DNA from: an uncultured Acidobacteriota bacterium
Lineage (GTDB): Bacteria > Acidobacteriota > Thermoanaerobaculia > Gp7-AA8
Assembly (NCBI GenBank): GCA_963822445.1
Contig: CAWGHO010000003.1
Span: forward strand, 288,001 to 352,000
Direction of reading: 5' to 3'
Length of the DNA: 64,000 nucleotides
In this document: positions 46,238 through 63,337 of the stretch, piece after piece
Position numbering within the stretch: the stretch's first letter is position 1
Layout of the letters: the number at the start of each line of letters is the position of its first letter
Program-made: the position numbers and the translations under genes
The notes under the pieces: generated by a model
The model's database searches: none
What the model saw: only the letters and a program-made list of their open reading frames with translations
Told to the model about the DNA's origin: nothing

Positions 46238-47061
46238 CGGCCGCGGGGCGCCGCCGCGCGTTGTTCGTCTTGATGGCGGCGGCGTGATCGCCGACGTAAC
46301 ACGCCGCGGCCGCGTATTCGACGGGCATCAGGTAGTTGTAAAGACTCTGCTCGATGAACAGGCGATTGCCGGTCGGTCGCGGAACCGCCATCGCCCGCGA
46401 CAGAAAGAGATGCGAGATCGCGAATTGCCGCTCCGTCTGGTAGTGCATCGCGATGCGGAAGAGCGGTACGGCATGATCCGGACAGTACGGCCACGCCGTC
46501 AGATACGCCTGCAGCACCTCCGGCCATGGCCGCCCGATCCGCTCCCCGAGCTGCGCGATCTGGAGGTTTCCGGGTCGCGGGCGCGCGCGCCGTCATTACA
46601 CGGAATAGTGCGAATGCCCGGAAGCAAGGCCTCGGACGTCGCGGCGGGGCAGTGGATGTGCTCGTGCAGCACTCCAATTACTTCCAGGGGTGCGCGTCGC
46701 GCACGAGCTGCCTGCGCAGATACGAATAGTTGCCGTAGAGCACTTCGACGTTGTACGAGTCGGAAGTCAGATGCGGCAGCGCCAACCCGTCCATGGCAAG
46801 AGGTAGCCGGCGCGCCCCCGCGCCAGAGCGAGCGCCTCGCTGCGGTTGTGTGCGAAGTCGACCGATGGCCGCTCGACGAGCTCGCCCGGGACATCGTGCA
46901 GAAATCGCCGGATCACTTCCTGCGTGCCGTCGGTCGAGCCGGTGTCGACGATGAGCCACGCATTGATCAGCGGCTGCGCGGATCCCAGACAGCGCCGGAT
47001 CACGTGCGCCTCGCTCTTGACGTTCATTCACCAGACAGATCGACTGGCCCTGATCGTTCAC
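46238..47061 (-). pseudogene. GT2 glycosyltransferase/TPR pseudogene, 5' part
   Basis: Fragments in several frames: VIRRCL...IVDTGSTDGT...DFAHNRSEAL; GVLHEHI; TPR-like QAYL...PLFRIAMHY. Confidence 0.85.
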
Positions 47062-47097
47062 GGGAAGGAAGTTGGTACCCCGGTCGGCTCGACCGGT

Positions 47098-47138
47098 TGG
47101 TGCGCATACGGGATTCGAACCCGTGTTACCGCCGTGAG
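47098..47138 (-). repeat. Copy of the tRNA-Glu 3' half (att site)
   Basis: Matches 63338-63379 except for one deleted A. Confidence 0.95.
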
Positions 47139-47271
47139 CTGGCTAATCTGACGAAGCTATATCTATCTGATTTCACGAGTTTAACGCGAATTGTGGTTTC
47201 GAGGTGTCCACGGAAACATGCTGGTTTTGGGCGTGTCCGTGGGCAAGTATGCGAGTGGTTTTGCGAGTGGC
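47139..47271. repeat. att-arm-like sequence, copy B
   Basis: Colinear with 61002-61134; ends TGCGAGTGG-TTT-TGCGAGTGG. Confidence 0.8.
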
Positions 47272-47533
47272 AGACCGCCGGCCTGGACTCGCCGTCGCGC
47301 GGCAATAGCACCGTTCGTGTTCTGGATCTTCCCTTGGTTTCGGCTACGTCGAGGTAGGGAAAGGGACCGCTCCGTCACTCCAAGGGAAGGGACACTCAGC
47401 AAACGTCGCCGCGGAACGGGCACGCTGCCGCCTCGAATCGAACGCGGCCGTGCTGTTCGTCTACGACATTGAAGTCGAAAGGAGTACCTTTACCTATCCA
47501 GCCTAGGGAACGGTCGTTCATGAGGAACTCGCG

Positions 47534-50230
47534 ATGAGGTTACGACAGCACGCCCAAGAGATCTTCGATGCTTCCAAGCGTGCCCGGCGCGCACATGCCG
47601 GCATCAAGGTCGCTGGAACGCGACTCATCGTGTGCATTACCGTTCTGCTATTGCTCCGGTTCTTGGCGTTCACGCCGAATCATGAGCAGGTGTCGGGCAT
47701 CCTGGCTACCTATGCACTCGTGGTCATTTTTCTCGTGGTGGCCTTTGAGGAAGTCATTGACCAGCGGCGATTCCGGCTCGTCGCGACCGTCTTGGACGTT
47801 TTCGCTATCTCACTTGTGATCAAGCTGACAGGCGGTCTCGAAACGTCATGGTTCCTCCTGTACGTGTTCCCGATCATGTCTGTCGCGCGTTACCTCGGTG
47901 TCGGCTGGAGCGTCGTCGTCGCGCTCGTCGCCGCAGCGGCATATGGGGGAGCCTCGCTTCCACTGTATTCGTCCACGGAGATCGGTACGTTCTCCCTGCG
48001 CTCGGTCATGCTAGTGATGGTCGCCTTCACGGCTGCCAGACTCGCCCGGACGCGATATCGCGAGGAAGCGACCTTTGCGGAAATGTTGCAGGATGCCGGC
48101 CAGCCAATTGTGACCGATATCGAGTTCGATCGCGCTCTGGCGCGGCTTCTCCAACTCGCGATCCGAGTTACAAAGTCCGGTTTCAGCGGTGTTGTGCTGC
48201 TGGACACTGGTCATCCAAAGATTCACGCCGAAGGACGGCTCAACTTTCGCCAGAACCATCTCGAGGAGGTCAAGAAACTGTTGGCCGCTCACTATCAGAA
48301 GGCAATCGAAACGAGACGCGCCGTTTCTCTGGCAAAGAGCGGGATCGGGGCATTGTTCAGCGGCTTGCGGTCGGAAAGGACGACGGGATGGACGGGGAGG
48401 CTCGTGCCACTGTCAATCGGCGGCCCTCCTTTTGCGGTCCTCGGCGTCTTCTCGCGGCGCACGATCCACTATCGGCCCGACGACATCCTGAAACTGAGTC
48501 GCATGGCCTCGGCCATGGCCATTCTCATGCAGAACGCGGCAGTGTCGCGGCCTCTCGATGCTAGGGCCGCGGCAATCCAGCGGCTGCGAGAGGAAAACGA
48601 GGCCCGGCTCCGCATGCTGTACGAGATCGGCGACATCTTGAAGGAGGAGGTCGGTCTGAGCGACGTCTTCAGGAGAATCGTAAAGATCGTTTCGGAACGA
48701 CTGCAATCCGAGGAAGCCTCGCTGTTCTTGTGGGACGAGCATGAAGAGCAGCTATTCAAGAAATCCGTGGCCGGTCCCGATGAGGTGACGACCAGAAAGC
48801 TCTCCGCCATCGAGGTGTCATATGCGAGCGGCGAAAGTCTCACGGGAGAGGTTTTTGCGACGCGTCGCGAGAAATTGATCGACAAGGTTCTTGCGAACGT
48901 CAGTCATGTCGAGGACTACGCGATCGCGTTGCCGTCGCGCTGCATCAAGCACTATCTCGCCGTGCCTCTCGTCATCGGCAACGAAATTCTCGGTGTGATT
49001 CGCGTTCTCAACCGGAAATCGGCGACGTACGCGCCTGAGCCGGAGGCGGCGACGATCCCGGACGACGGATTCGACGAGGCGGATCTCCATCTTCTGAGGA
49101 TGACTGCGCGCCTGATCGCGGTCGCGATCAGGAGTGCGGGATTCGTCGAGCAGAAGCGTTACTTCGAGAATCTCGTCTATCAGTCGCCCGATCCGATCAT
49201 CGTTCTCGACGAGAACAAGAAGATCAAGAACTTCAATCGAGCGTGCACTGCTCTCTGGAATGTGGAAGAGAAAGAGGTCCGCGGGCAGTCGGCCGAACAA
49301 TTCTACAAATCGCCGGATCACGCCCGGCAGATCGGAAAGGCCCTCGGAAAAGCCAAAGATCACATGATTCGCGACTACAAGACATGGATTCGAGACCCGA
49401 GCGGAAAGATCGTTCCGATTCGGTTGTCCGCGACCGAGTTTCGCTCGAAGAGCGGTCGATTCACAGGCAGCGTCGGCATATTCAACGATGCACGGGGCGA
49501 GCACGAGGACAGGCTAAAGGCGCTCGCGAATCTGTCGCGGGACGCAAGCCACGACATCAAGAACGACGTCCGGGCGATTACCTACTATTTCGAGGACCTC
49601 GAACGGCTGTCGCGGACTTCCGCCGAACTGCTCCCGATCTATCAGGCAATTCGCGCGGCGGCGGAGGCGGCGCTGAGCAAACTGCAAAGTCTACTCATGA
49701 CGGCGGCCCCCCCTCCCGCGCGAGCTGCCTTGATCCCGATCGTGGCCGAACTGGCCGAGTGGCTAGCGTCCATGCAGGAGAGGATGGAGGCGGCGAACAT
49801 CCTATTGACGTTCACGCGGCCGGATGACGATGCAATTGTGAGCGCCGACAGGGAACAGTTGAGACACGTGCTGTCCAATCTGCTCGGCAATTCCGTGGAC
49901 GCGATCCTGGAAGCCAAACGGGAACTGGACAATCGCCGGATCCACGTCACGATCGAGCTCGCCGATGAGCAGGCCATTCTGCAATGGCGTGACAACGGTA
50001 TCGGGATGCCGGAAGGAGCGGCTCGAGACGCATTCACGGCATTTTATACTACTAAAGAAAATGGTAATGGGCTTGGACTCTCGATCAGCAGGAATATCGT
50101 GAAGAGTCACGGCGGCGACATTGGCATCGAGTCGACGACCGGCAAGGGAACCTGCATCACCATCACCCTTCCGTTGATCGTCGCTTCCACGTCTCTGGCC
50201 TCCACCGCAACAGGCAATGCCCATGTTTGA
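47534..50230 (+). CDS. Membrane sensor histidine kinase (TM, GAF, GAF, PAS, kinase)
   Basis: Several TM helices; PDPIIVLD...FNRAC; ASHDIKN; NLLGNSVDA; DNGIGM; FYTTK..GNGLGL. Confidence 0.92.
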   Translation: MRLRQHAQEIFDASKRARRAHAGIKVAGTRLIVCITVLLLLRFLAFTPNHEQVSGILATYALVVIFLVVAFEEVIDQRRFRLVATVLDVFAISLVIKLTGGLETSWFLLYVFPIMSVARYLGVGWSVVVALVAAAAYGGASLPLYSSTEIGTFSLRSVMLVMVAFTAARLARTRYREEATFAEMLQDAGQPIVTDIEFDRALARLLQLAIRVTKSGFSGVVLLDTGHPKIHAEGRLNFRQNHLEEVKKLLAAHYQKAIETRRAVSLAKSGIGALFSGLRSERTTGWTGRLVPLSIGGPPFAVLGVFSRRTIHYRPDDILKLSRMASAMAILMQNAAVSRPLDARAAAIQRLREENEARLRMLYEIGDILKEEVGLSDVFRRIVKIVSERLQSEEASLFLWDEHEEQLFKKSVAGPDEVTTRKLSAIEVSYASGESLTGEVFATRREKLIDKVLANVSHVEDYAIALPSRCIKHYLAVPLVIGNEILGVIRVLNRKSATYAPEPEAATIPDDGFDEADLHLLRMTARLIAVAIRSAGFVEQKRYFENLVYQSPDPIIVLDENKKIKNFNRACTALWNVEEKEVRGQSAEQFYKSPDHARQIGKALGKAKDHMIRDYKTWIRDPSGKIVPIRLSATEFRSKSGRFTGSVGIFNDARGEHEDRLKALANLSRDASHDIKNDVRAITYYFEDLERLSRTSAELLPIYQAIRAAAEAALSKLQSLLMTAAPPPARAALIPIVAELAEWLASMQERMEAANILLTFTRPDDDAIVSADREQLRHVLSNLLGNSVDAILEAKRELDNRRIHVTIELADEQAILQWRDNGIGMPEGAARDAFTAFYTTKENGNGLGLSISRNIVKSHGGDIGIESTTGKGTCITITLPLIVASTSLASTATGNAHV

Positions 50231-50732
50231 GGAGATGCCTATGATCACACAGTCTTTGTTGGCTGGATCGGTTTCGCCGACGATTCACGCATGGCTTGGT
50301 AAGGGAGAGCCGGTCTCGCTCGCGGATGCGGCTGCCGGACACGAAGCGGTATTGCGAAAAATCAGAGAGCTAGCGCTCAAGGTACTCGTAGTGGACGACG
50401 ATCGTACTGTTCGGCAGGCATTATGCCACCGGCTCGAGAACGACTACGGCGCAGAGGTGGTTGACGTCCCCTCCGGCGATGCTGCGCTGCATGCCGATCT
50501 CGCTCAGTACGACGTCCTGCTCGTGGATGTGGTGATGCCAGGAATGAGCGGCGTCGTCACATGCGAGAAGATGATCGAGCTTCGGATCAAGGGAGTAATC
50601 GTGTTAATGTCGACCAACTCGGAAAACCAGGATGCGGCGACTGCGCACGATGTCGCCTTCTATGACAAGAACGATTCGGTCACGGCGCTTGAGCCGATCC
50701 TACTCGGTGTGGCAGGGCGCCGGGCTTCATGA
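50217..50732 (+). CDS. Single-domain response regulator with N-terminal extension
   Basis: VLVVDDD...LLVDVVMPGMSG; start uncertain. Confidence 0.8.
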   Translation: MPMFEEMPMITQSLLAGSVSPTIHAWLGKGEPVSLADAAAGHEAVLRKIRELALKVLVVDDDRTVRQALCHRLENDYGAEVVDVPSGDAALHADLAQYDVLLVDVVMPGMSGVVTCEKMIELRIKGVIVLMSTNSENQDAATAHDVAFYDKNDSVTALEPILLGVAGRRAS

Positions 50733-53504
50733 GTCGGGAAGTTTTGCTGGTCGACGACGAGAAGCGCTTCCGCATGGCGCTGATGCAGAAATTGCCGGAG
50801 TACACGTTCCTCGAAGCGATCTCGCCTGCGGATGGAAGGAAAGCGATTGACGCGAATCTCCAAATTCACGTCGTGCTTCTAGATCTCGACTACAAGGGAG
50901 TCGGTGACGCGACTTCCGTCATCGATCACGTCAAGGAACGCGCTGGCGATTATCGCTTCATCGTCCTCACCGCACACCAAGAGATGCTCGGCGCCGATGC
51001 CGCCGGCGAGCATGCCGTCTTTCGCTATCTGTCGAAGGACGAGCGAGTCGAGACCATTAAGTTCGCGCTCGATCAGGCATTCAAAGACCTGGAACGACAG
51101 CATCTCGCCGCGAAGTTGAGTTACCACCTCGACATCCAGGAGCGGATCGGGAGGAATGAACAACTCACCGACGTCCTGAACCTGATCTGCGAGGGAGTGC
51201 AGAGAATCGTCGGCGCATACACGTGCCACATCCGTATCTACGACTTTGCCCGGGGCGACTTTCCACTCGGAGGTTTCGCCGGCCCGAAGACATTGCGCGA
51301 GGTGCTCGATCAGCCGAAGGTGAGCGGCACGCTTTTTTCCGGAAGAGCCATCTCCACGGGATTCGAGGAGGTCATCGATGACCTTCAGACGATGCCGGAG
51401 TTTAGCGAATTCGCGAAAAAATCTCGTGAATCGCGCCGTCTGATCCCCGAACCCGAACAGAGGTACTGGCAGACCGTCCGCTCGTGTTACCTCGTTCCGA
51501 TCCGTACCGGAGTGCTCGGCAGGCGCGTGGACGCGGTTCTTAATGTGAGCAGCGAAAAACGCGCCTTCTTCACCGAGGAAAAACAAGCCCTGGTGAGGGA
51601 GTTCGTCACGCAGGCGTCTCTCGCCCTCGCCAAGCGCTGGCTCGAGCAGAAGCGCTCGGAGATCCACGAAGATCACAGCGAGATCGGCAAGATGTTTAAC
51701 GAGATGAGCGAGCTGAACAGTCTCGGCCAAATCTTCGACGTGGTGACGTCCGGCATCGCGAAACTCATCAGCGCCGAAGTCGTATCTATTTTTCTCTTCG
51801 ACGAGGAAGACGGTGTATTGAAGAACTTCGCCAGCTACAGTGGAAGCGACTATGTAAGCGACGATGATCTGGTCAAGGAGGTATACAAACCCGGCGAGAG
51901 CTTCACGGGCACCGTCTATGCCAAAGAAGATACGATCATGCGCCCCGACCCGCGCGAGGAAAAGCAGCTCAAGCCGGAAGAGGATCCTCTGCACGAATAC
52001 GAGATGCTCAAGGTGCACTTGAAGGGGATTCCGTGCGGGAAGCTGGAGCACTACGTCGGTGTGCCGCTGAGGGTTCGGGGGAAAACGCGCGGAGTGCTGC
52101 GCGCGGTGAACAAGAAGTCGAAGTATTACGACACGAAGAGGGCCCGCGGCGGAGATCCGGCGGTCCTCCTAGAGCGCGGCTTCAGCGTCGACTGTCTCAA
52201 TGCATTAACGCTCACCGCAGGCCACTTGGCAGTGACCATCCGTAATGCCGAGCTGCTCGAAAAAGAGGGACGAGCGTGTCCGGCAGGTCGAGACGCTCGT
52301 CGCGGTCGGCAAGATCGTTAACCAGACATTAGAGATGAATGATGTCCTCGCGCGCACCATCGAACAGATGGCGACGGTGATGCGGGCGCGAATCGGCATG
52401 CTCTTCCTCAAGGACGATCACGATTCCGACCGGGTCGTATTGAAGGCATGTTACGGAATGCCAGTTATCAATGCGTCATACAAGAAGGGCGAAGGCACTA
52501 CAGGGCGCTGCTATGAGAGCAACAGTCCGATCTTGATCTCCGTGGGTAGCCTGAACGACGGAAAATACAACGACCAAATCCGCGAGCACTTGCAGTCCGC
52601 GGACGGCACACCCGCGGAGATCGAGTCGTTGATGGTGGTGCCGGTCAATGTCAAGGGCATGGCCTTCGGCGTCATGAAGGTCGTGAACCGACAGGAAGGG
52701 CATGGCCCTTTCACGGTCGAAGACCTTGAGCTCTTCCAGATGTTCGCCGAATTGGTGGCGGTGACCATCGACAATGCGCAGATCTACAAGGCGGCAAACG
52801 AAAATGCGGTGCTTTCTCTGATGGTCTCCGTCGCCGCGCACGAGATCGGCAATACGTCAGGCGTCATTCCCGCCAATGTCGCCGGCATCCGCGATGCGCT
52901 CGGTACGCCGCCGCCGGAAATTGAGAACATGCTCGCCACCATTGAGGCGTCGGCCCTGGAAGCGACCGACTTCGCTAAGGAAATCTCCGGGTTCTCTCCT
53001 ACCCGTCCAGATCAGAAAGAAGATCTCGACCTAAATGAACTCGTCGACAGTATGGTGACGACATTTAAATTCGATCTGCAACGCCACAAGCAGTCGCCGC
53101 AGAGTAGGCTGGAGATCATCCCGTCGGCCGAGACGCTCATGTGCCGGATTTTTCGGCGGCCGTTCGAACAGACGATCCGGAACATCATCATCAACGCATT
53201 CCAGGCTCTCGGCGATAAGGACGACGGCTACGTGCGGGTCTCGATGGCTTCCGAGGAGCGCGAAGACGGCAGGTTCGCGGCAATCTCGGTCGAGGACAAC
53301 GGCTGCGGCATTGACCCCAAAGACACTTCCAGGATCTTCGACGGCGGCTTCACGAGAAAACCGCGCGGGAGCGGAGTGGGACTGTGGCTCGCACAGAAAC
53401 ACTTGGCACTCCTGAACGGAACGATTGCCGTCGACAGCGAACTGAATCGAGGATCGAAATTCACTGTCCGCCTTCCTCTGATCGCGGGAGGGCAGGGGGG
53501 GTGA
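50729..53504 (+). pseudogene. Hybrid kinase REC-GAF-GAF-GAF-kinase split by a 1-nt frameshift near 52260
   Basis: ORFs 50729-52321 and 52245-53504 together are colinear with the intact paralogue 57192-59945; AAHEIGN, DNGCGI, GSGVGL. Confidence 0.85.
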
Positions 53505-54745
53505 TCCAACGTGCCCGCGTATTGATCATCGACGACCGGCTCGGCGTGCGCCAGACGCTTCGCAATGTCCTGTTCGGCCTCGATTGCATCTTCACCGAGG
53601 CGGTGAGCGGCGACAGCGCGCTCGCGATTCTGAGCAGTCAGAAATTCGACATTACGTTTCTCGATCTGTCGCTTCCGGACATTTCCGGTCTCGAGGTTCT
53701 GAAGCAGGGCAGCGAGAACGCCGACGCCATGGGAAAGGTGATCGTGCTGACCGGACTCCCAGAGGAATCTACGCGCGCGCATGCGATGGCGCTCGGGGCG
53801 TTCGCCTATCTGTCGAAAGATCCGATCGATCGAACCGCGATCCGGCAGACGTTCACGAAAGCGGTTAAGCCCGCTCGACCGTCGACGACACAGTCCCTCG
53901 CGCTGCCCGCTACTCCCGAGAAAGCCCCGTCCAAACGGAGAGCGCGTAGGATCTCACGCCCTCAGACGACAACGACACCGCAACGTCGCAAGCTCCTCGT
54001 GTTGGACGATAAGGCGTATTGGCTCGAAACGATTGAGCGTTTGTTACAGGATGAGTTCGAGGTCGTCGGCGCAGCGACCCCGAACGAGGCCTACGCGAAG
54101 ATGAAAAAGGGAAATTTTGCGCTGGTGGTGCTCGATATGAAACTGCCGGGGGACGAATCCGGTCTCGATGTCCTGAGCCGCATGCGCCGCGCGCGGCACG
54201 ATCTCCGCGCGATCATTCTGACCGAATACCCCGATTGGAAAGAGGCCGTCGAGAGCGGCAGGCGGGGCGCAATCGACTATGTGTCGAAGGCCGATCCGAC
54301 GATGCTGAAGAGCGTCGTGACGCGCATTCTAGGCGAGCGCCCGCCCACCCGCGTTTTTCTCTCCTATGACCGCCGCGACAAGGCGCGGGTACTCCAACTC
54401 TACCAACGTCTGATGACGCGCGGTTTCATTCCGTGGATCGACGTGAAGAGCCTCATCCCCGGACAGCGGTACGTGCTGCAGATCGAGGATGCGATCAAGG
54501 ATTGCGACTACTTCGTATTCTGCGTTTCCCATCACTCGGTCGAGTCAAGGGACGGGCTAATCCAGCAGGAACTGCGCGTCGCGCTCGATCTCGAGAGGCA
54601 GAAGCGTCGCGGTTCGAGTTTCCTGATTCCAGTCCGGCTTGAGCCCTGCGAGGATCATCCCGATCTGGAGGATTTTCAAGCCGTCGATCTCTATCATCGG
54701 GAAGGCTTCGCGAGTTTGATGAAGGCGCTTTCGTCGAAGCGTTAA
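53501..54745 (+). CDS. REC-REC-TIR response regulator
   Basis: GTGA coupling; FLDLSLP and VLDMKLP receivers; VFLSYDRRD...PWID...QQELRVAL...LIPVRLE. Confidence 0.9.
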   Translation: MIQRARVLIIDDRLGVRQTLRNVLFGLDCIFTEAVSGDSALAILSSQKFDITFLDLSLPDISGLEVLKQGSENADAMGKVIVLTGLPEESTRAHAMALGAFAYLSKDPIDRTAIRQTFTKAVKPARPSTTQSLALPATPEKAPSKRRARRISRPQTTTTPQRRKLLVLDDKAYWLETIERLLQDEFEVVGAATPNEAYAKMKKGNFALVVLDMKLPGDESGLDVLSRMRRARHDLRAIILTEYPDWKEAVESGRRGAIDYVSKADPTMLKSVVTRILGERPPTRVFLSYDRRDKARVLQLYQRLMTRGFIPWIDVKSLIPGQRYVLQIEDAIKDCDYFVFCVSHHSVESRDGLIQQELRVALDLERQKRRGSSFLIPVRLEPCEDHPDLEDFQAVDLYHREGFASLMKALSSKR

Positions 54746-54762
54746 ACGAATAGGTGAGACCA

Positions 54763-55635
54763 ATGACGGATCGTCGAAGAATTCTCATCGTCGATGACAG
54801 CGAATCGTGGCTGCAGACCATACGACTGATTCTTGGCGCACAATACGATCTCACATGTGTGACCAGCGCCGCCGAAGCTCAGGCTCTGATTGCGACGGAG
54901 AGATTCAACCTCGCCATCCTCGATCAGAGGCTTCCCGGGGGGCCTTCCGGTGTCGAGCTGTTTATGGTGCTGCGTGCGGTCCAGCCTGATCTGCGCGCCA
55001 TCATCCTGACCGCGCACGCCGAGGTCGGCGACGCAGTCCACAGCATAAAAAGCGGCCTGTACGACTACATTTCGAAGAGCGATGGAGCAGATCTGCGGAC
55101 AGAGCTACGCTCGCGCGTCGAACAAGCATTGCAGACCGCCCCGCGTGACGTAGACGTTGCGACTCTGCTGCAATGCGACGAAGGTGACCTCCTCGAGTTC
55201 AAGTCATCCGCACGATGGGACATGCGCGCGGCGCGCGCCAGCCATGACATCGAGACGATCATCGTGAAGGCCGTGGCCGGCTTCCTCAATTCCGACCGCG
55301 GTGGCGTGCTTCTGATCGGCGTTGATGACAATCACAACGCGATAGGTCTCGAACATGATTACCGCACGTTCAAAAAGTCGGGCCGCGATAGTTTCGCCAA
55401 TTTCCTGCGCACCCTCTTGCTCGACGCGTGCGAGAAAGACATCAGCCGGCTGATTGAGATCGACTTCCACGACATCTCCGGCAAAGACATTTGCCGTGTC
55501 CGCATCGGTCCATCTCCTCGCCCAGTCTTCGTCAAAGAGGGCCCGACCGAGGTTTTCTACCTGCGAACCGGAAACTCGACCCGGCCACTGAAGCCAAGGG
55601 AGCTCTTGGAGTTCAGTAAAGTGCGATGGAAGTAG
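54763..55635 (+). CDS. Response regulator with AlbA_2 (Schlafen-like) output domain
   Basis: ILIVDD...ILDQRLP; EGDLLEFKSS...AGFLNSDRGGVLLIGVDD...FYLRTGNST. Confidence 0.88.
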   Translation: MTDRRRILIVDDSESWLQTIRLILGAQYDLTCVTSAAEAQALIATERFNLAILDQRLPGGPSGVELFMVLRAVQPDLRAIILTAHAEVGDAVHSIKSGLYDYISKSDGADLRTELRSRVEQALQTAPRDVDVATLLQCDEGDLLEFKSSARWDMRAARASHDIETIIVKAVAGFLNSDRGGVLLIGVDDNHNAIGLEHDYRTFKKSGRDSFANFLRTLLLDACEKDISRLIEIDFHDISGKDICRVRIGPSPRPVFVKEGPTEVFYLRTGNSTRPLKPRELLEFSKVRWK

Positions 55636-55971
55636 CGTGTGCGAATTACGCCCTCGCTCCCGGCTCAGCGCGAATGATCTCGTCTTCTAATGCGGCGCTT
55701 CGACAAGATCACACCCACAAGCTCCAAATACGCATAGATCGTGTCTTTCACGCCTTGCGAATTGCGCGTAGACATCTTGGATCGCGAAACGCTCCGTCGT
55801 GGTGGTCGTTCGTGGAGGCGGAACTTTACGCTCCATCCGGCAAAGAATTGCAGCGGGAGCCGGAGGCCCGCTGCCTTAACGAGCTCTGTGCCTTGCCGCA
55901 CGCGCAAGCTCTTCAAAGCAAACTTTAGCGCTTGAAGGTTTTTCGCCCGCGCTCAGTAGCGCGTTGTGGTG

Positions 55972-57195
55972 CTACCCGGCGCGCGGCACTTTTGGTGGCG
56001 ACAACGCGTCGAGGAGTGCAGCAAACCCGTTCCTTTTGAAAATATCGACGTGTTGGAAGCGATGGAGCGACGGTTCCCGTGGACAGTCTTCGAGCCGTGC
56101 CGGGATGAAGAATGTTGCACCATCCGCCTTCTCATCCTGACGGCGTAAAGCGAGCTTCACTTCGCGACGCATCACGCCCTCACGTCCCACGGAATTTCTC
56201 GAGACGAAGAAAACGAAGTAATGCGAATCTTTGATCGCTCTCTCGATCTCGAGTTCCCACTCGCTTCCCACGCGAAGCGATTTTTCGTCCATCCATGGAT
56301 AAAACCCTATCTTCGTCAATCTGCTGTGCAGCCGGGAGACAGTGGCGAAGTCCGCTCGCGCGTAACAGAGGAACACCTTCGTGGCAGGGCGCTGATCATT
56401 CAGGATGCTGTTAATCATCGCTGGAAGGGAAGTCAGCCGGTTCTTGAGGATGTGTTTGAGAGCACCGCGCCGCGCGCTTTCGAACACGGCGTCGGGGTCG
56501 TTCTCGTCCGAGATCATGATCGCCCGCAAATCGGGAACGCGCTTCCGCAGGCGCATCAGCAGGTCCAACCCAGAGACATGGCCAGCGAGGTTCACATCGA
56601 CGATGGCGAGGGCTGGGGGGTGCTGAGTGAACTTTCTGAACGCGTCATCGGCATCCGTCGCCGCGATCGGCTCGAATTCTTCGCTGAGGATGTCGAGCAT
56701 TTGCTCAAGCGAGGACGGATCGCTGTCGACGAGGAGTAAGGCGGGACGCGACTCATTTGGCACGAAACATCGCTTCTGTCCGCGTGATGCCCGCACGCTG
56801 GTCGGAGCAACGGTAGCAGGTGCAATGCCGATCGCGTCCTGAAACGCACGGCGGATGCCGCTCCATGACATCGAGCCCTTCGACAAATACCGAAACGCGC
56901 CGAGTTCATCGGCCTCCTTCGCGGAGTCCAGGTCGGGATAGCCCGTCAGAACGATAACTTTTCCAACCGCCAAATGCCGTCTGCGGGCTTCTTTGAGAAT
57001 GTCGAGTCCGGACATGTCACGCAATTTCAAATCGAGAACGATGACATCAAAGACGTTGGACTCGATCAACTCCAGTGCTCTCGAGCCGTCGTCGGCTTCG
57101 GTGAATACGCAGTCGAATCCCGTTAGCGTACTCCGCAGCATGTTGCGGATGTCGTCGCGATCGTCCACGAGCAATACTCGTGAGCGCCGCGTCAC
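55972..57195 (-). CDS. REC-REC-TIR response regulator (paralogue)
   Basis: GTG 57195 overlaps the kinase stop; VFLCYARAD...PWMD...RREVKLAL...FIPARLE. Confidence 0.9.
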   Translation of the reverse strand: MTRRSRVLLVDDRDDIRNMLRSTLTGFDCVFTEADDGSRALELIESNVFDVIVLDLKLRDMSGLDILKEARRRHLAVGKVIVLTGYPDLDSAKEADELGAFRYLSKGSMSWSGIRRAFQDAIGIAPATVAPTSVRASRGQKRCFVPNESRPALLLVDSDPSSLEQMLDILSEEFEPIAATDADDAFRKFTQHPPALAIVDVNLAGHVSGLDLLMRLRKRVPDLRAIMISDENDPDAVFESARRGALKHILKNRLTSLPAMINSILNDQRPATKVFLCYARADFATVSRLHSRLTKIGFYPWMDEKSLRVGSEWELEIERAIKDSHYFVFFVSRNSVGREGVMRREVKLALRRQDEKADGATFFIPARLEDCPREPSLHRFQHVDIFKRNGFAALLDALSPPKVPRAG

Positions 57196-59945
57196 CGCGT
57201 TGCTCCACGTTCGGCGTCTGGGAGTGTGATGACGAACCGGGAACCGCACTCTGCTCCACCGTAGACCTCGATGTTTCCGCCGAGCGTCTGCAGCTGAGCC
57301 CGCGCCAGCCACAGTCCCAACCCATTTCCCCTCGGTTTCGTGGTGAAGTCTGCGTCGAAGATTCGCCGCAGGTGCTCAGGTTTGATTCCGATTCCGTTGT
57401 CCTCGACAGATACCTCAGCCATTCCATGACTCCCTACGGCAGTGCTGATGCGAACGACGCCGGGCCTCGTGCCATCCAAAGCCTGAAAGGCATTGAGAAC
57501 GACATTGCGGATGATCTGTTTGAAGGGCGCCGGGTAAATGCCTCGAACGATCGGGCGCTCGCTCAGGGCAAGCTCGAGCCTTCCGTCATAGCGATCGAGT
57601 GTCGGAGTGAGCTCGCGGATCGTCTCCGTAATCACTTCATTGAGCTCGGATGGTTCCTTGTCGCGCACTCGTCCGGAAGAAAACCCGGCGATCCCGTTCG
57701 CAAAATCGGTTGCCTGCTCCGCGACGTTCTCGAGCCGCGAAAGCATTTGCACCACGTGCATGTTAGGGTCGCGGAGCTCCGCGCGGATCGCGGCGACTGT
57801 TACCGGGATGATGCCGATGGTGTTGTTGATCTCGTGCGCGACCGCCGCGACCATCGTCGATAGAGCTGCATTTCGTTCGGCTATCGCGAGACGCTCGTTC
57901 TGGTGCTCGTAAATCTGCGCGTTGTCGATGGCCACGGCTACGTGATCGGCGAACGTGCTGAAAAGCGCGAGATCGCTGTCCGCTTGCCCGCTCTGCACGC
58001 CGGTTCTCTTGATCACTTTCATCACGCCTATGACGCGGTGTCTGGCAACGACCGGCACGATCATCAGGGAAAACATTTCCGCGGAGAGACCATGTTTGGT
58101 TCGGAGGAAATCAAGCACGATCTTGTCGTCCTTGCTGTTCACGACCTCCGCGGCCGGCAGCAGGAGGGGATTTTGGCTCTCAGCGACCGTGCCAGTGAGG
58201 GCCTCTCCAATGCGATAAGACGCGCGCTCCACCAGCGACCGCGGGATGCCGAACGACTCCTTCAATACAAGTCGGTCGCCGTCGAGCAGGAAGAGTAAAC
58301 AGATATCCGCCTGCATCACTTCGGCGGCTTTTCCGATCGTGAGCTTCAGCAGTTCATCGATGTCAGTTTCGGAGTTGATGATGTGCGCGACTTCGCTGAG
58401 AGTTCGGGTCTGCTCGACCTGCCGGTTTTTGTCGTGCAGCAACTCTGAATTCTGAATGGCAATGCCAAGATGATTGGCCGCTATCTCCAGAACGACGAGG
58501 TCATCGCGTACGAAGCCGCGCTCCAGGAGCGCTTGGCGGTCTGTCATCGCGGTGGCACGGTCGTAATAAATCGACTTCTTGTTAATCGCGCGCAACACTC
58601 CGCGAACGTGGCCGCCGATGCGGATCGGCACTCCGAGATAGTGATCGACTCTGGCCGATGGAATGTGCCTCATCGAGACATGACGGCCTTCGTGATCGAA
58701 ACGCGTATCGTCATGCGCCCGTGAGATCGGAGTATGAGTCAATTCGGGCAGTAGCACCGACTTCGCGCTAGTGAATACATAGCCGGTCAGACTCTGGCCG
58801 GGTGCATATCCTTCTTCGAGTCCGGTAATGGTTTCGCCGCTCAGATCGACGACCTTCCGGAGAACTCCGTCTTCAAGGTCATATAGGAACACCGAGACGA
58901 CTTCGGCACCGATGATTCCCGCTATGCGGCGCGCCACGATCTCGCACAAGCTCGTGACGTCGCTGAGCTCCAGCCCATTGCTGATCGAAGCGAGCATCCA
59001 CGCGAGCGCGTCGTAGCGAGACTGAAGTTCCTCGCGCCTGTGGTGGAGCCAATGCTTTGAAATCGCCAGCGCCGCCTGATCGACGAATTCGCTGATCAGT
59101 GCGCGCCGTTCTTCGCTGAAGTAATTCGCGAGCTCGCTGCTGACATTCAGCGCGGCATCGACGCTCTGGCCGTAGAGACCAGTCCGGATCGGAACGATGT
59201 ACGCCGCACGCGCCGTTTCGAAATAGGCCCCCCCGCTGTCCATCGCTGGGTCGCGCATCTGTCTGAACTCGGGTAGTGCTTGCAGGTCGTCGAACAGCTC
59301 TGCTGAACCTGATTCCACGACTCTGCCGGAGAACAGCTCACCTTTCTTGCGCGGGGGTTCGAATGCGGAGCGCAGCCGGGCATCGCCGGCGTATCCGCGG
59401 AGCTGGTAATCGCCCGCCCGCGTGTCGTAGACGCGAATGTGACACGTGTAAGCACCGGCAGTGGTCCGTACAGCTTCGCAGATCTGGTCGAGAGTCCGGG
59501 TGAGTTCGTAGCCTTCATTGATGCCGCGCTGAATGTCGAGCAGCATTCGCATTTTGCGGTCGAGGGCCTGACGCTCCAGATCGGCGAACGCCTGATCGAT
59601 GGAGAATCGCAGCGACTCGGCGCCGTTGTCGGACTTCGAGAGGTACCTGAAAACGTCATAGTGATGCGCACTCTCCGCGCTAAGCGACGTCGAATGTGCC
59701 GTGAGAATGATGACCCGGTAGTTATCCGAGCGCGGACGGATGTGATCCAAGACTTCGGTTCCCGAACCAGGACCGAGAAACAAGTCAAGAATGATCACCT
59801 TGATCTGAGGATCGGAGTCGATGATCTCTATCGCTTCAGTCACCGATGTGGCGTTGACAAAGCGATAGTTGCGTTTTCGGAACATTCGAATGACGGTCTC
59901 GCGATACGCCCGATCGTCCTCAATGAAAAGGACATCTTTGCTCAT
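57192..59945 (-). CDS. Hybrid kinase REC-GAF-GAF-GAF-kinase
   Basis: MSKDVLFIEDD; three GAF-like repeats; VAHEINN; NAFQA; DNGIGI; GNGLGL. Confidence 0.92.
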   Translation of the reverse strand: MSKDVLFIEDDRAYRETVIRMFRKRNYRFVNATSVTEAIEIIDSDPQIKVIILDLFLGPGSGTEVLDHIRPRSDNYRVIILTAHSTSLSAESAHHYDVFRYLSKSDNGAESLRFSIDQAFADLERQALDRKMRMLLDIQRGINEGYELTRTLDQICEAVRTTAGAYTCHIRVYDTRAGDYQLRGYAGDARLRSAFEPPRKKGELFSGRVVESGSAELFDDLQALPEFRQMRDPAMDSGGAYFETARAAYIVPIRTGLYGQSVDAALNVSSELANYFSEERRALISEFVDQAALAISKHWLHHRREELQSRYDALAWMLASISNGLELSDVTSLCEIVARRIAGIIGAEVVSVFLYDLEDGVLRKVVDLSGETITGLEEGYAPGQSLTGYVFTSAKSVLLPELTHTPISRAHDDTRFDHEGRHVSMRHIPSARVDHYLGVPIRIGGHVRGVLRAINKKSIYYDRATAMTDRQALLERGFVRDDLVVLEIAANHLGIAIQNSELLHDKNRQVEQTRTLSEVAHIINSETDIDELLKLTIGKAAEVMQADICLLFLLDGDRLVLKESFGIPRSLVERASYRIGEALTGTVAESQNPLLLPAAEVVNSKDDKIVLDFLRTKHGLSAEMFSLMIVPVVARHRVIGVMKVIKRTGVQSGQADSDLALFSTFADHVAVAIDNAQIYEHQNERLAIAERNAALSTMVAAVAHEINNTIGIIPVTVAAIRAELRDPNMHVVQMLSRLENVAEQATDFANGIAGFSSGRVRDKEPSELNEVITETIRELTPTLDRYDGRLELALSERPIVRGIYPAPFKQIIRNVVLNAFQALDGTRPGVVRISTAVGSHGMAEVSVEDNGIGIKPEHLRRIFDADFTTKPRGNGLGLWLARAQLQTLGGNIEVYGGAECGSRFVITLPDAERGATR

Positions 59946-60883
59946 TCGAGCTCCGAGGATGTCGGGCGCGGCAGCTCGATGGTGAAATACGCACCGGCTC
60001 TCTTGCCCGATCCAACTGAGATGTTGCCGCTGTGCGCTTCGACGATGCGCCGCGCCGCAAACAGCCGCAGGCCGATGGTCCATTGATAGGTCGTAAAAAA
60101 CAGCTTGAAACATTTCTCCTCGACTGCCTCGAACATCCCGCAGCCATTGTCTCGCCAGAACAACAGGACGTCACGCGCTGTAACATGCGACGGGATATGG
60201 ATTGCCGCTCGTGCCCCCGCGAGGGCGATGGCATATTTCGAGTTCGCCAGTGGAATTTCCAACACGAACGTCATCTGATCCGGGTCCGCGACGACGAGTA
60301 TCTCGTCATCGGGCAGGACGATTGAGACGCCGATCCCTTCGATGCCCAAGGCGAATCGCGACAGCATCGATCGCATCGACACAATTTCGCGCTGGGGCGG
60401 CTCGGGATTCAGTGCGAGCTGCCGTTGTTGCAACCGCCCGATAGCTTTGCGCGTTGCGGCGCGAATCGCCTCGCACACCTTTTTGATTTCATCGCTCGGG
60501 GGGCCGTTCAGTTCCAGAGTCTCGACCCATCCGCGAATGATCCCGATGGTATGTTTCAAGTCATGCGCGAAAAGAGAAGCAAACCCGGACACCATTCTCA
60601 GAGCCAGCGCATCCGCCTCAGCGCGCACCTTCGCCGGCCGCAAGCGGACGAGGCGTCTCTGTAGAGCAACGAAACTTAGGAACTGCCCTCGTATCATGTC
60701 GATGCGGAAGTATGATAGAGCCCTCAGCTTTGAGAAGGCAGAAGACTTCACAGCGCTATTCCTCTCGACGCGTTCCCCAGCGCGCGGGCTCTTCCAAGTC
60801 GGTCGCCAATATTGGCGGATCAACGCGAGAGCTATCTCGATCCCGCGTCGGCAACGAGACATGACCTGGCGATGCTCGCGCAC
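59942..60883 (-). CDS. Sensor-less, partly degenerate histidine kinase (possible pseudogene)
   Basis: FAHDLKH and DNGCGM present; N and G2 boxes altered; start uncertain. Confidence 0.6.
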   Translation of the reverse strand: MREHRQVMSRCRRGIEIALALIRQYWRPTWKSPRAGERVERNSAVKSSAFSKLRALSYFRIDMIRGQFLSFVALQRRLVRLRPAKVRAEADALALRMVSGFASLFAHDLKHTIGIIRGWVETLELNGPPSDEIKKVCEAIRAATRKAIGRLQQRQLALNPEPPQREIVSMRSMLSRFALGIEGIGVSIVLPDDEILVVADPDQMTFVLEIPLANSKYAIALAGARAAIHIPSHVTARDVLLFWRDNGCGMFEAVEEKCFKLFFTTYQWTIGLRLFAARRIVEAHSGNISVGSGKRAGAYFTIELPRPTSSELE

Positions 60884-60959
60884 TCGCTACGGAAGAGCGG
60901 AGCAAGTTGCATGTTGCGCTCCGAATACTTTTCGGTTCTCTCCTCCGATGGGGTTTCTT

Positions 60960-61001
60960 TGGTAGCGCATACGGGATTCGAACCCGTGTTACCGCCGTGA
61001 G
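60960..61001 (-). repeat. Exact 42-bp copy of the tRNA-Glu 3' half (att site)
   Basis: Identical to 63338-63379. Confidence 0.97.
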
Positions 61002-61134
61002 CGGGGCAGCAGAAGAGAGCTACATCTCTCTGATTCCACGTACTTAGCGCAGTGTGATCGATTTCGTGCGTCCACGGAGATACGCCGTTTTAGGCGCCCG
61101 GGTGGCCAAGTATGGAAGTGGTTTTGAGAGTGGC
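61002..61134. repeat. att-arm-like sequence, copy A
   Basis: Shares AGCTA.ATCT, TCTGATT.CACG, GTCCACGGA, CAAGTATG..AGTGGTTTTG.GAGTGGC with 47139-47271. Confidence 0.8.
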
Positions 61135-61148
61135 GAAATCGCCGCTTT

Positions 61149-61787
61149 TCAGAGGAGAGATGGCGATGATTCGACTTTTGTTGGTGATGGCGGTGAGTTG
61201 GTTTGTTCGGCTTCACTCGCTGCCTCGAAGAGGTCAATTGCGAGACTGCTCGTTCGGTACGTAATGCGGCCGAGGACGAAGGGCTCGACGCTCGCCGCCC
61301 GGAGTTTCCAGTCGCGACGTAGGTAGACGAAGAGCCGGTGCGTGAGCAGCTCGTGCACGATGAGGTCCGTTCGAAGCACGAAGTTGCGCGGAGTCGCCTG
61401 TGACGGTGGAACGAGGGCCGCCGTCACGTAGAGATGTGCGACGCCTGCTCCCGAATGCCCGGCACCTGGCTCGATGACGATCTCGACGTCACCCACTTCG
61501 GTGCACCACACCGTGCCGTCCCGATTGGAAGCGGTCAGGTGATCGGCGACGTAACGTGCGATGTCGCGCCGCAGGCCGGCGGAGAGCGCTTCGCTGGTGC
61601 GAGGCACCGGTTTGCCGAAGCCGATCTCGAACTGCGCGGCAGGGAGACGCAGCTCCGCCTCGACGTGCCCGCGACCGACGTCGAGAAAGATCGTGCTGTC
61701 GGGGAGAGGATGGCTGAATACCTCGGGCGCTGCGAACAGCATCGAAGCAATCAGCAGCATGGCAGACCCCAGACGCATCGCCTTCAC
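61149..61787 (-). CDS. Exported hypothetical protein
   Basis: Signal peptide ending VFS-HP; coupled to the upstream gene. Confidence 0.6.
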   Translation of the reverse strand: MKAMRLGSAMLLIASMLFAAPEVFSHPLPDSTIFLDVGRGHVEAELRLPAAQFEIGFGKPVPRTSEALSAGLRRDIARYVADHLTASNRDGTVWCTEVGDVEIVIEPGAGHSGAGVAHLYVTAALVPPSQATPRNFVLRTDLIVHELLTHRLFVYLRRDWKLRAASVEPFVLGRITYRTSSLAIDLFEAASEAEQTNSPPSPTKVESSPSLL

Positions 61788-63232
61788 TCTGAGTGCCGGA
61801 CCGTGCGGCGTCGCCCGGCCGGTTCGTCGTCGTGGATCGTCAGCATGGTCGAAGCCGGACTGCCGAGCGCCGCGCCACCGGCAGCACTGCTCAGCGTGAA
61901 GACGACGGTCTCCGGGCCTTCAACCAACTGGTCGTCGAGGATCGGAATCTGAAAGCTCTTGCTGCCGCTCTCACCATCGGCCCAGGTCAGCACACCGCTC
62001 ACTGATTCGAGATCACTCCCTGCGGTTGCCGTCCCTCCGGCCACTGCGTATGCGACGCTCACCGCTCCGGTCGTGCCGCCGATGCGCTGAATCTGAATCG
62101 TCGCGACGCCGGCACTCTCGGCGACCTCGTAGCTCGTCTCCGCGAACGTGATCGTTCCAGGCTCGAGCACGAGCGTGCCGTCACCTCCGTAGTCGAGGGT
62201 CTGATCGCGCCAGATCGCGTGATAGTGAACCTGGTCGGGGATCGCCGCGGGGCCCTGCACGACGATCTCCATCCACGCACGGGGCCCGTCGATGCGGATG
62301 TACGAGCCTTGCGTCGCGAGAGTGGCGTTGCTTCCCGCCCAGCCGATATATGTGTTCTCGAGTGCGCTACTGCTCGTGTAAGCGGCGAGAAAATCCGAAG
62401 CGACGCCGCTCGGCGTGTCATTCACCCAGGCCTCCATCGCGTCGACGACGAGTGCCTGCTGCGTCGCCGACAGTGTCGAGACCTTCAGGCCGGATGGCGT
62501 CGGGAAAAGATTGTCGTCGCCTGGACCGAGCAGAACGTCGCCGAATGTACCGCTGAGCTTCGCCGCGGCGCGCTGCGTCGCATCGAGGCCGGCGATCATC
62601 GCGACCATCACGTCCACCTTCGGTTTGAGCGGCTCGTAGCTCTGACCGTTGAGCGTGAATCTCTGCGGATTCATGCCGGTGAAGTACGGCGTCGGGCTCT
62701 CGACGGAGCCGTGATAGTAGAAATTGAGCGCGTAGTGGTGTCCGCCGAGCTGGAGGATCCACTCCCCGGTCGACGAGGGCGTGCCGATGAAGGCGATGAA
62801 GTAGATCCCGCTGTTGTACGTGGAGCTCTGGCCGAGGGAGCCTAAAAAGTCGTCGGCCATACGGATGCCGTGGAAAGTGCCGTAGCCCGCACTGGAGAGC
62901 GCCGCCTGGGCGACGGCGAGCGCGGCCTCGAGCTGCGTCGCAGACAACGTGCTGAATCGCAGACCGTTGTTGCAGGCAGCAGCGCATGGAAGGTTCGACC
63001 ATTTGCTCGATGCCGTGGCGCGGTTGAAGGCGTATTGAACGCCGTTCCTCTGTGTCGCCGAGAGTGTCGCGAGGAAACTCTCGGCAGCGCTGCAGACCGC
63101 TTTGGCCGGAGCGCTGCTGCCCGCGGTGCAGTTGCTCGTCTGTGCGGTAACCGTCGTGGCGCTCAGCAGGAGCGCGAGTGCAAAAGTGCATGCGATCAAG
63201 ACCTTCGATGGCTGATTCGGCATGGTCGCCAT
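61784..63232 (-). CDS. Secreted DUF3500 plus Calx-beta domain protein
   Basis: Signal peptide; WSNLP; QLGGHHYALN; YIRIDGP...HYHAIWRD; Calx-beta GTATAGSD...IPILDDQLVEGPET. Confidence 0.85.
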   Translation of the reverse strand: MATMPNQPSKVLIACTFALALLLSATTVTAQTSNCTAGSSAPAKAVCSAAESFLATLSATQRNGVQYAFNRATASSKWSNLPCAAACNNGLRFSTLSATQLEAALAVAQAALSSAGYGTFHGIRMADDFLGSLGQSSTYNSGIYFIAFIGTPSSTGEWILQLGGHHYALNFYYHGSVESPTPYFTGMNPQRFTLNGQSYEPLKPKVDVMVAMIAGLDATQRAAAKLSGTFGDVLLGPGDDNLFPTPSGLKVSTLSATQQALVVDAMEAWVNDTPSGVASDFLAAYTSSSALENTYIGWAGSNATLATQGSYIRIDGPRAWMEIVVQGPAAIPDQVHYHAIWRDQTLDYGGDGTLVLEPGTITFAETSYEVAESAGVATIQIQRIGGTTGAVSVAYAVAGGTATAGSDLESVSGVLTWADGESGSKSFQIPILDDQLVEGPETVVFTLSSAAGGAALGSPASTMLTIHDDEPAGRRRTVRHSE

Positions 63233-63337
63233 TCTGGTCGTTCAAGAGGCGTTTCGCGGCAACCGACCTGCGACAATCCAGGAAATCGAGGCGATTCACC
63301 GCATCGTCGCGGCGGACGTGGAGCGGGGGGAAGGGTT

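Follow-up and report, generated by a model that had tools for sequence, protein, structure and literature searches.

Within a 64,000-nucleotide stretch of DNA from an uncultured Acidobacteriota bacterium (Thermoanaerobaculia; Gp7-AA8; assembly GCA_963822445.1, contig CAWGHO010000003.1, positions 288,001-352,000), hereafter the window, whose own numbering is used below unless another contig or locus is named, an islet of low guanine-plus-cytosine (GC) content, bounded by repeats of a transfer RNA (tRNA) 3' half, carries a five-gene two-component operon whose outputs are a TIR domain and a Schlafen-like domain. We explain this operon best as a two-component module, complete in itself and spread horizontally, that operates in the manner of the anti-phage system Detocs but is built from other parts; more specifically, we assign a probability of roughly one half to its being a Detocs-like abortive-infection or growth-arrest system in which a nicotinamide adenine dinucleotide (NAD+) hydrolase (NADase) and a tRNA-cutting nuclease (tRNase) serve as phosphorylation-gated effectors. 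That His-Asp phosphorylation gates immune-type enzymes here had been put forward in an earlier note made from the sequence alone, and is supported both by its fit with the architecture and by one proven precedent, Detocs.

The operon in question (the left of two in the islet, forward strand) encodes, in order, a membrane GAF-GAF-PAS kinase, a lone receiver (REC), a REC-GAF3 kinase, REC-REC-TIR and REC-AlbA_2. Kinase 1 (47534-50230, +; 898 residues; GAF, GAF, PAS and HATPase_c by Pfam) has five to six hydrophobic segments in residues 22-168, which make up a polytopic membrane domain, and a motif scan finds its H-box (SHDIKN) together with G1 and G2 boxes. The lone receiver (50217-50732, +; 171 residues; Pfam Response_reg E 2.4e-14), whose acceptor Asp is aligned, is a candidate phosphate sink or buffer. 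It is followed by hybrid kinase 2 (50729-53504, +; REC, three GAF domains and a kinase core), present here as two open reading frames (ORFs) at 50729-52321 (REC-GAF-GAF) and 52245-53504 (GAF-HATPase_c); by REC-REC-TIR (53501-54745, +; 414 residues; TIR_2 E 1.2e-26), for which the GTG at 53501 is the likely real start within the ORF 53384-54745; and by the Schlafen-like REC-AlbA_2 (54754-55635, +; 293 residues; SLFN_AlbA_2 E 2.6e-16). Four-base start/stop overlaps connect genes in this operon and in its convergent paralogue, e.g. ATGA where the lone receiver ends and hybrid kinase 2 begins and GTGA where REC-REC-TIR starts on the upstream stop; because successive genes overlap by ATGA or GTGA, translational coupling is suggested. 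Pfam confirms the domain calls of the earlier note, including the single REC and the REC-AlbA_2 that it had listed as additions of the left operon. The same search finds no helix-turn-helix (HTH) or other classical DNA-binding family in any island protein, in line with the claim that a DNA-binding output is absent, and no NCBIfam model reaches its cut-off for any of these proteins.

Kinases with H-box and HATPase_c are thus encoded adjacent to receivers with an acceptor Asp, as in two-component systems. The acceptor column is Asp in all eight receiver domains of the island, so that the earlier statement on this point stands, and all four kinase cores carry HATPase_c, the H-box His and the G1 box. 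A G2 box is found by motif pattern in two of them; the left hybrid kinase has a Val variant, read by eye, and the 313-residue kinase of the right operon has none. The word phosphorelay, by which these operons had been introduced, is better dropped because no HPt domain lies between the receivers, none of the nine proteins matching an HPt family (Pfam, E up to 0.01), and because the N-terminal receiver of the second kinase looks like an input; judged from the domains, a two-tier, receiver-gated kinase cascade is the safer and simpler description.

Residue conservation fits a first output that would be an enzyme under receiver control. In a 29-sequence alignment of REC-REC-TIR that includes the right paralogue, D55, T84 and K106 of receiver 1, D212 and K263 of receiver 2 and E357 of the TIR domain are invariant (29/29). 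The two island proteins score 94 and 86 bits with TIR_2 (Pfam cut-off 28), and the Glu at the catalytic position (E357; motifs QQEL and RREV), to which the earlier note had rightly drawn attention, is also kept in 78 of 79 aligned receiver-linked single-TIR domains, the window's own included; a TIR profile and the Glu of the helix after strand C, which mark enzymatic TIR domains, occur together in the island proteins. In PADLOC, the best matches of the TIRs are to Aga_TIR-PNTD1-PNTD2 models (E 1e-15 to 1e-17), which from the name we take to be Argonaute-associated TIR proteins. The closest solved TIR sequences are those of Cat1 (CRISPR-associated TIR 1; E 0.0042) and SPARTA TIR-APAZ (E 0.006-0.007), both weak matches of about 20 bits. 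In the alignment with TIR-APAZ, the QQEL Glu falls opposite that of a KEL motif; counting along the printed alignment makes the latter residue 77, and the E77A substitution abolishes the NADase activity of SPARTA (PMC9097488). TIR NADases require oligomers (10.1101/2023.09.23.559129), and an AlphaFold2 model of REC-REC-TIR (predicted local distance difference test, pLDDT, 81.6), which has a disordered linker at residues 125-159, finds as its top whole-model Foldseek match the REC-REC-GGDEF protein PleD (9g86_A, E 9.7e-11). These whole-model searches were filled by receivers and so did not probe the TIR fold, and reached the AlbA_2 fold only through a single match (3lmm, below). Elsewhere in the genome, 7 of its 17 TIR_2 matches fall within about 67 kb of contig C2 (2160190-2227568), and two of these (at 2164461 and 2202353) agree exactly in score and in frame length, so that duplication of a TIR-rich region is suggested.

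The second output is conserved too. REC-AlbA_2 matches SLFN_AlbA_2 with 60.6 bits (Pfam cut-off 25.3), and in a 12-sequence alignment its receiver residues D57, T86 and K108 and its output residues E143, E148, F149, K150, D191 and D192 are invariant (12/12). The output residues form the active-site motif E143-GDLL-E148-F-K150 (Ex4ExK) and the GVDD segment (D191-D192). Ex4(E/D)xK serves catalysis in prokaryotic Schlafens, whose tRNA cutting defends Escherichia coli (PMC13056530), and the combination of SLFN_AlbA_2 with this motif, by which such proteins (pSlfn) are recognised, is present in the REC-AlbA_2 sequence. The GG-LL-GVDD segment aligns in HMMER with SLFN11 (E 0.0016) and with rat Slfn13 (E 0.062); on a motif reading the E-x4-E-F-K strings of REC-AlbA_2 and the mammalian proteins would be equivalent, these lying a few columns apart in the HMMER alignment. 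Rat SLFN13, whose triad is E205, E210 and D248, has two lobes in a pseudo-dimeric arrangement, with the RNase site in this two-lobed clamp, and bacterial proteins match a single lobe only (PMC5862951). The AlphaFold2 model of REC-AlbA_2 (pLDDT 80.6) has the uncharacterised DIP2311 (3lmm) as its sole non-receiver Foldseek match, and a PDB profile search with alignment A4 returned receivers only. The same AlbA_2 type without a receiver is found in other Acidobacteriota proteins (L058-L066; open frames of 286-1,322 residues) and also in this genome, in a 779-residue frame (C2:2300159-2300647).

The module recurs in other organisms with its gene order preserved. Among 5.8 billion proteins, relatives of REC-REC-TIR with E 1e-47 or better fall into 34 clusters, the window's own counted. 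The 14 related loci that were compared comprise six genome loci, all from Acidobacteriota assemblies (Thermoanaerobaculia, Terriglobia and unclassified), and eight metagenome loci; two of the 14 (L025 and L026) are near-identical. REC-AlbA_2 stands immediately downstream of REC-REC-TIR in 12 of the 14 (Pfam-confirmed in L001-L005; by tblastn only, 47% over 288 residues, in L006). In L029 no REC-AlbA_2 is found within the 1.3 kb available downstream, and L027 is without it; the REC-REC-TIR relative of L027 (10001-12844) is a 947-residue protein whose last ~530 residues match no Pfam family, a form shared by the cluster representative P0062. Kinase 1 and the hybrid kinase lie upstream in all ten loci that reach that far, the kinase 1 orthologues being 38-58% identical and in the same place in each (with partial or split matches in L006, L025 and L027), and the lone receiver is seen in seven of the ten (by Pfam in L002 and L004-L006, by tblastn in L001, L022 and L023). 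Hence the core order of kinase and REC-REC-TIR genes is kept wherever the related loci extend far enough, the outcome that had been proposed as a check on the original idea. Since the flanking genes differ from locus to locus, the gene maps indicate that the five genes travel as a unit. This unit of soil Acidobacteria is rare: full-length REC-REC-TIR and full-length REC-AlbA_2 each occur in one of 401 evenly sampled genomes of the phylum (this one only), and neither occurs in seven other genomes of the same family, all of these counts being floors.

Receiver-linked TIR domains form a wider class. An exhaustive profile search of 1.84 billion cluster representatives was used to list the best 150, and the 141 new ones among these were classified by hidden Markov models built from our own alignment as REC-TIR (55, mostly of 250-290 residues), REC-REC-TIR (15), REC-REC-REC-TIR (1), TIR-REC (7) and multi-TIR, multi-REC or mixed forms (63). 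Many representatives in the range P0073-P0202 are 1,200-2,300 residues long with three to seven TIR-like stretches. A receiver and AlbA_2 are both present in 89 of the 120 listed relatives of REC-AlbA_2, the named ones coming from Acidobacteriota and Longimicrobiaceae. Several such relatives lie on contigs equal in size to those of REC-REC-TIR clusters, as P0281 does with respect to the single-receiver REC-TIR P0077 (15,878 nucleotides, JGI); this equality is only a hint that the members of each pair share a contig, and in the case of P0077 and P0281 that single-receiver TIRs take part in the pairing as well.

Both operons lie within islet 1 (47143-60957), whose nine open frames leave room for nothing else sizeable. 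The 37-nucleotide core of the tRNA-Glu(ctc) 3' half is found in three exact copies (47102-47138, 60965-61001 and 63343-63379), where chance predicts 0.00 (100 shuffles), and in no further exact copy in the 6.0 Mb genome. Attachment (att) copy A (47095-47142) marks the distal end of islet 1, copy B (60958-61005) the border between islets 1 and 2, and the third lies within the 3' half of the tRNA-Glu (ctc) gene itself (63338-63413, -; ARAGORN). Whilst the att repeats of the earlier note are therefore real and exact, there are three and not two of them, and they bound two tandem islets. Islet 1 has a GC content of 58.3%, whereas the part of the window that precedes it has 65.1% and the part beyond the tRNA gene 68.5%, so that direct repeats of a tRNA 3' end bound low-GC DNA, as they do in genomic islands. 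An integrase of its own beside the att site, a further mark of such islands, is lacking: no integrase family is found among the ORFs between 40.9 and 64 kb and no tyrosine integrase on this contig, the genome's five Phage_integrase matches all lying on other contigs (serine recombinases were not searched genome-wide). The description of the system as mobile accordingly keeps the support of the att repeats, the low GC content and the detection of REC-REC-TIR in none of the seven other genomes of the same family (a floor), and has the lack of a tyrosine integrase on the contig against it. A promoter and terminator scan of 47000-61100 gave no excess over shuffles (3 vs 3.9; 9 vs 11.9).

Islet 2 (61006-63335; 2.3 kb; GC 63.3%), likewise bounded by att copies, contains a 212-residue ORF without known family beside a gene for a DUF3500-Calx-beta protein (61784-63232, -; Pfam). 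Because the ~35 nucleotides to the right of att copy A are similar to those to the right of copy B, the two islets may have descended from related elements. Just left of copy A (43823-45148) lies an HTH-M78 peptidase gene with matches to PD-Lambda-2_B of PADLOC (E 1.3e-43) and to HigA, and within 43823-45938, on the opposite strand and overlapping it, an IS1-like transposase remnant below the NCBIfam cut-off. Farther upstream, at 14910-40980, the window holds a complete-looking extracellular contractile injection system, with two sheath genes, gp19-type and CIS tube genes (one with LysM), a spike OB domain, gp25, baseplate J, a Tail_P2_I-NHL protein, a collagen-repeat protein, a WHD-AAA ATPase and an eCIS_core-domain protein. 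A role of the two-component cluster as regulator of this injection system was considered and rejected, since the injection genes are not part of the islet that the att copies enclose and accompany none of the related loci.

The right operon (reverse strand, convergent to the left) is a reduced version of the same design, consisting of a 313-residue kinase core, a REC-GAF3 kinase and REC-REC-TIR. The short kinase (59942-60883, -; HATPase_c only) starts 75 nucleotides from att copy B and has an H-box and G1 but no hydrophobic segment; hybrid kinase 2 (57192-59945, -; REC, three GAF domains, HATPase_c) is intact, with 917 residues from the Met at 59945 within the ORF 57192-60113, H, G1 and G2 boxes and an ATGA overlap with the gene upstream; and REC-REC-TIR (55972-57195, -; TIR_2 E 3e-24; ORF 55972-57312) keeps every family-invariant residue. 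Between the operons, the hybrid kinases are identical at 218/521 and 173/414 positions and the REC-REC-TIR proteins at 176/418 (42% in each case), which bears out the claim of two convergent paralogous operons; the first kinases share 64/220 identical positions (29%), counted over the kinase core only, i.e. the C-terminal 220 residues of kinase 1. To call them twins goes too far, the right copy being a divergent three-gene paralogue with a sensor-less kinase. In a quick tree of REC-REC-TIR, the left and right proteins fall in different starred clades, the left one grouping with P0002, L022, L001 and L023 and the right one appearing as sister to P0015 with an end branch of 1.12 (0.42 for P0015), and on these sequence comparisons the operons are old paralogues of different subclades and not a recent duplication.

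The order and domains that had been given for each operon (kinase, REC-GAF3 kinase, REC-REC-TIR) hold, with the qualifications that the first kinase of the right operon lacks its sensor and that a single extra A breaks the left REC-GAF3 kinase in two. The frame switches at an A5 run (52260-52264, +); compared with the right paralogue, the match of the first frame ends at residue 515 and that of the second begins at residue 8. A 9,596-nucleotide contig from a soil sequencing run is 94.5% identical to 51345-53300 (108 of 1,955 bases different) and shows a single indel, having one base fewer at 52260; because this close relative lacks the extra A, the alignment indicates that the intact gene is the ancestral state. 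In the window the extra A may be either a genuine mutation or a homopolymer error of the assembly. Elsewhere hybrid kinase 2 is one gene of 920-946 residues in seven loci (L001, L002, L003, L005, L006, L022 and L027) and, going by coordinates, one ORF of ~925 residues in L023 and of ~767 residues in L025. In L004 (7175-10004) it is likewise split, into 704 and 249 residues, and because this unrelated assembly breaks the gene at another place than the window does, errors of assembly may account for frameshifts in so long a gene.

The neighbourhoods of the related loci were scanned for defence genes with PADLOC, using 77 flanking ORFs from 11 loci. The flanks of L004 encode a type I HsdR (E 7.5e-226), a ThsB-like TIR protein and a DndH/HerA-like protein, those of L027 a SNF2 helicase-methylase and a PD-T4-6-like kinase, and those of L001 a DUF4365 nuclease protein and an IS21 helper; an ABC-type ATPase flanks L023. 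The PADLOC matches of L003, in contrast to these, are generic aminotransferase and methyltransferase folds. Thus about three to four of the nine loci with long flanks have convincing defence neighbours and the others do not, so that the defence-island association that the earlier note had wished to see is found in part; the window itself adds the PD-Lambda-2_B-like gene to the left of att copy A. Taken as a bare proportion, this is suggestive only.

Taken together, these features would allow the following mechanism, in which the direction of signalling is read from operon order. On a cue such as infection, envelope damage or a metabolite, the membrane-anchored GAF-GAF-PAS kinase would autophosphorylate and pass its phosphate to the N-terminal receiver of the cytoplasmic REC-GAF3 kinase, which might integrate a second, GAF-bound input and would in turn phosphorylate the two response regulators with enzyme outputs. 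In response regulators, receiver phosphorylation drives receiver pairing; such pairing in REC-REC-TIR, as in PleD, could bring about the TIR oligomer required for NAD+ hydrolysis, and dimerisation of the REC-AlbA_2 receiver could bring two single Schlafen lobes together into a two-lobed tRNA-cutting clamp. Loss of NAD+ and a stop in translation would then lead to growth arrest or cell death, whilst the lone receiver would drain stray phosphate and so prevent self-harm, as has been proposed for DtcB of Detocs.

Several observations weigh against the Detocs-like immune reading. Membrane GAF-PAS kinases are typical environmental sensors, and the island's own sensor set (a six-helix membrane domain, GAF and PAS) is of this type. 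No convincing defence neighbour is found at five of the nine long-flank loci (L002, L003, L005, L006 and L022), which sit among housekeeping or unknown genes; the kinases, the lone receiver and REC-AlbA_2 match no named defence system in PADLOC, the matches other than those of the TIR domains being weak and to candidate PDC models and SduA; and the T and K positions of the lone receiver do not align cleanly. In addition, the Detocs kinase DtcA is drawn with TPR repeats, unlike kinase 1 of the island (10.1101/2023.01.24.525353). The sensors and the ordinary neighbourhoods would suit a system with the same enzymology but no immune purpose, i.e. a stress or developmental switch in which the membrane GAF-PAS kinase would sense a cue from the environment or the envelope, and in which a fall in NAD+ (or an ADP-ribose-type signal) together with tRNA trimming would send the cell into dormancy. 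The 17 TIR_2 matches of this genome, which imply that TIRs are widely recruited in this organism, fit such a switch, as does the report that some prokaryotic Schlafen genes lie away from defence genes and are perhaps non-immune (PMC13056530). The patchy and rare distribution of the module (1/401 sampled genomes), its place in an att-flanked low-GC islet, the three to four loci with defence neighbours and the presence of proven anti-phage members in both effector families all argue the other way, and we regard a non-immune switch as a possible but rather unlikely explanation.

The nature of the outputs and the state of the operons must also be weighed. AlbA_2 has long been annotated as nucleic-acid-binding, with relatives named 'RNA-binding domain-containing protein', 'Putative DNA-binding domain', 'AlbA family DNA-binding domain-containing protein' or 'predicted HTH transcriptional regulator', and many TIRs are adaptors (PMC7075850); together with DIP2311 as the only non-receiver structural match of REC-AlbA_2, this could point to an ordinary regulatory two-component system in which TIR is a protein-interaction scaffold and AlbA_2 a DNA- or RNA-binding regulator, and a nucleic-acid-binding output would then be present after all. 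Such a role is improbable given that no HTH is found and that the catalytic residues, needless in pure binding modules, are strictly kept (the TIR Glu in 29/29 and 78/79, the Schlafen E, E, K and D in 12/12). The frameshift in the left hybrid kinase counts against the Detocs-like reading as far as this genome is concerned, and because the right operon is without a sensor, a lone receiver and a Schlafen partner the system may not be fully functional here. In this particular genome the locus could also be a decaying relic, with the left operon disabled by the frameshift, the right one truncated at the att border and neither of them signalling. In favour of this are the additional A at 52260-52264, which a 94.5% identical contig lacks, the sensor-less 313-residue kinase without a G2 box in the motif scan at 75 nucleotides from copy B, and the long end branch of the right REC-REC-TIR. 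Nevertheless, a one-base homopolymer error is a common assembly artefact, the L004 hybrid kinase being split as well; all other genes are open, the right REC-REC-TIR has lost none of its family-invariant residues, and the halves of the split gene could still act as separate proteins, so that we think a relic quite unlikely.

If the Detocs-like reading is right, its interest would go beyond this islet. TIR NADases and Schlafen tRNases are common to bacterial and to animal or plant immunity, and the triggers known to us are cyclic nucleotides, guide-bound nucleic acids, phage proteins and NLR-type assembly. With both enzymes in one conserved operon behind receivers with intact acceptors, phosphorylation would be a direct on-switch. 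A much broader proposal, tentative and on balance doubtful, is that bacteria generally use His-Asp phosphorylation, in a manner hitherto undescribed, to arm immune enzymes of eukaryote-like type; the receiver-TIR class would pair with receiver-Schlafen proteins in a dual kill switch acting on NAD+ and tRNA, tandem receivers would polymerise TIR into an active filament, and receiver dimerisation would rebuild the two-lobed clamp. Were that so, phosphorylation would rank as the third major trigger of TIR and Schlafen immunity beside nucleotide second messengers and nucleic-acid guides. These ideas are testable, the proteins being small and soluble and the sites to mutate obvious (acceptor Asp, TIR Glu, Schlafen Ex4ExK, lone receiver), and could show how an active TIR assembly arises from receiver pairing and how single lobes come together in a Schlafen clamp. 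The module also directs attention to at least 70 further receiver-TIR clusters, of which the literature searched gives no description. Should the module prove not to be immune, it would be a rare two-component system in direct control of NAD+ and tRNA pools.

Among known systems, comparison with SPARTA and Cat1 rests on the TIR domain, for which they provide the closest solved sequences with the catalytic Glu aligned; their abstracts describe SPARTA TIR-APAZ and Cat1 as NADases switched on by oligomerisation. The island, in contrast, has no Argonaute, APAZ or CARF partner, and its proposed switch is receiver phosphorylation. Membership in SPARTA was rejected, there being no Piwi, MID or APAZ family and the PADLOC and PDB matches covering the TIR part only. 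Thoeris likewise has a bacterial TIR with a catalytic Glu, and weak PADLOC matches to ThsB models are seen (E 4e-5 and weaker), but the input in the island would be phosphorylation, and membership was rejected because neither operon encodes a ThsA-type partner (SIR2, SLOG or Macro) by Pfam. PleD resembles REC-REC-TIR in having tandem receivers followed by an enzyme that needs pairing for activity. The second receiver of PleD is an unphosphorylated adaptor; both receivers of REC-REC-TIR, by contrast, keep the acceptor Asp, Thr/Ser and Lys, and the output is TIR and not GGDEF. REC-AlbA_2 shares with pSlfn, SLFN11 and SLFN13 the SLFN_AlbA_2 family, the Ex4ExK motif and the GVDD Asp, and differs from pSlfn in having a phospho-receiver as fusion partner and from SLFN13 in having one lobe where a single SLFN13 chain has two. 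The TIRs of SPARTA and Cat1 are established anti-phage effectors. The same is true of prokaryotic Schlafens (PMC13056530), the main text of that paper containing none of the words receiver, response regulator and two-component.

The nearest relative in principle is Detocs, an anti-phage two-component system made up of the kinase DtcA, the lone buffering receiver DtcB and the receiver-effector DtcC, with swappable effectors (10.1101/2023.01.24.525353). As far as the preprint text describes it, Detocs shares with the island an operon with a kinase, a stand-alone receiver and a response regulator that bears a cell-damaging enzyme instead of a DNA-binding domain; the left operon follows this three-gene logic and adds an extra kinase and a second effector, and the right operon lacks the lone receiver. 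The sensor is a membrane GAF-GAF-PAS kinase in the island and a TPR kinase in Detocs. The island interposes a second, receiver-gated GAF3 kinase, its TIR regulator has tandem receivers, and it places two effectors (TIR and Schlafen) in one operon, whereas Detocs has PNP, REase, TOPRIM or TM, a PNP-clade effector being the form in most members. Pfam finds no TPR or PNP domain in the island and PADLOC no Dtc-named match, the presence of Detocs models in that library being unconfirmed. The preprint text covered here mentions no effector of TIR or Schlafen type, although either its Table S5 of effectors or Supplementary Table 2 of PMC13056530, with its 55 architectures, may list receiver-TIR or receiver-Schlafen forms. 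A search of the literature other than subscription journals and supplements found no description of a receiver-TIR or receiver-Schlafen response regulator, of their pairing in one operon or of the two-tier kinase design. It is therefore true, as the earlier note had it, that this architecture is not a named system, whilst the principle behind it has already been named and tested as Detocs. The island, with its two kinase tiers and its pair of effectors, would take Detocs beyond a single effector family: the principle is known and both effector families are known immune enzymes, and it is the architecture and the pair of effectors that the literature searched does not describe.

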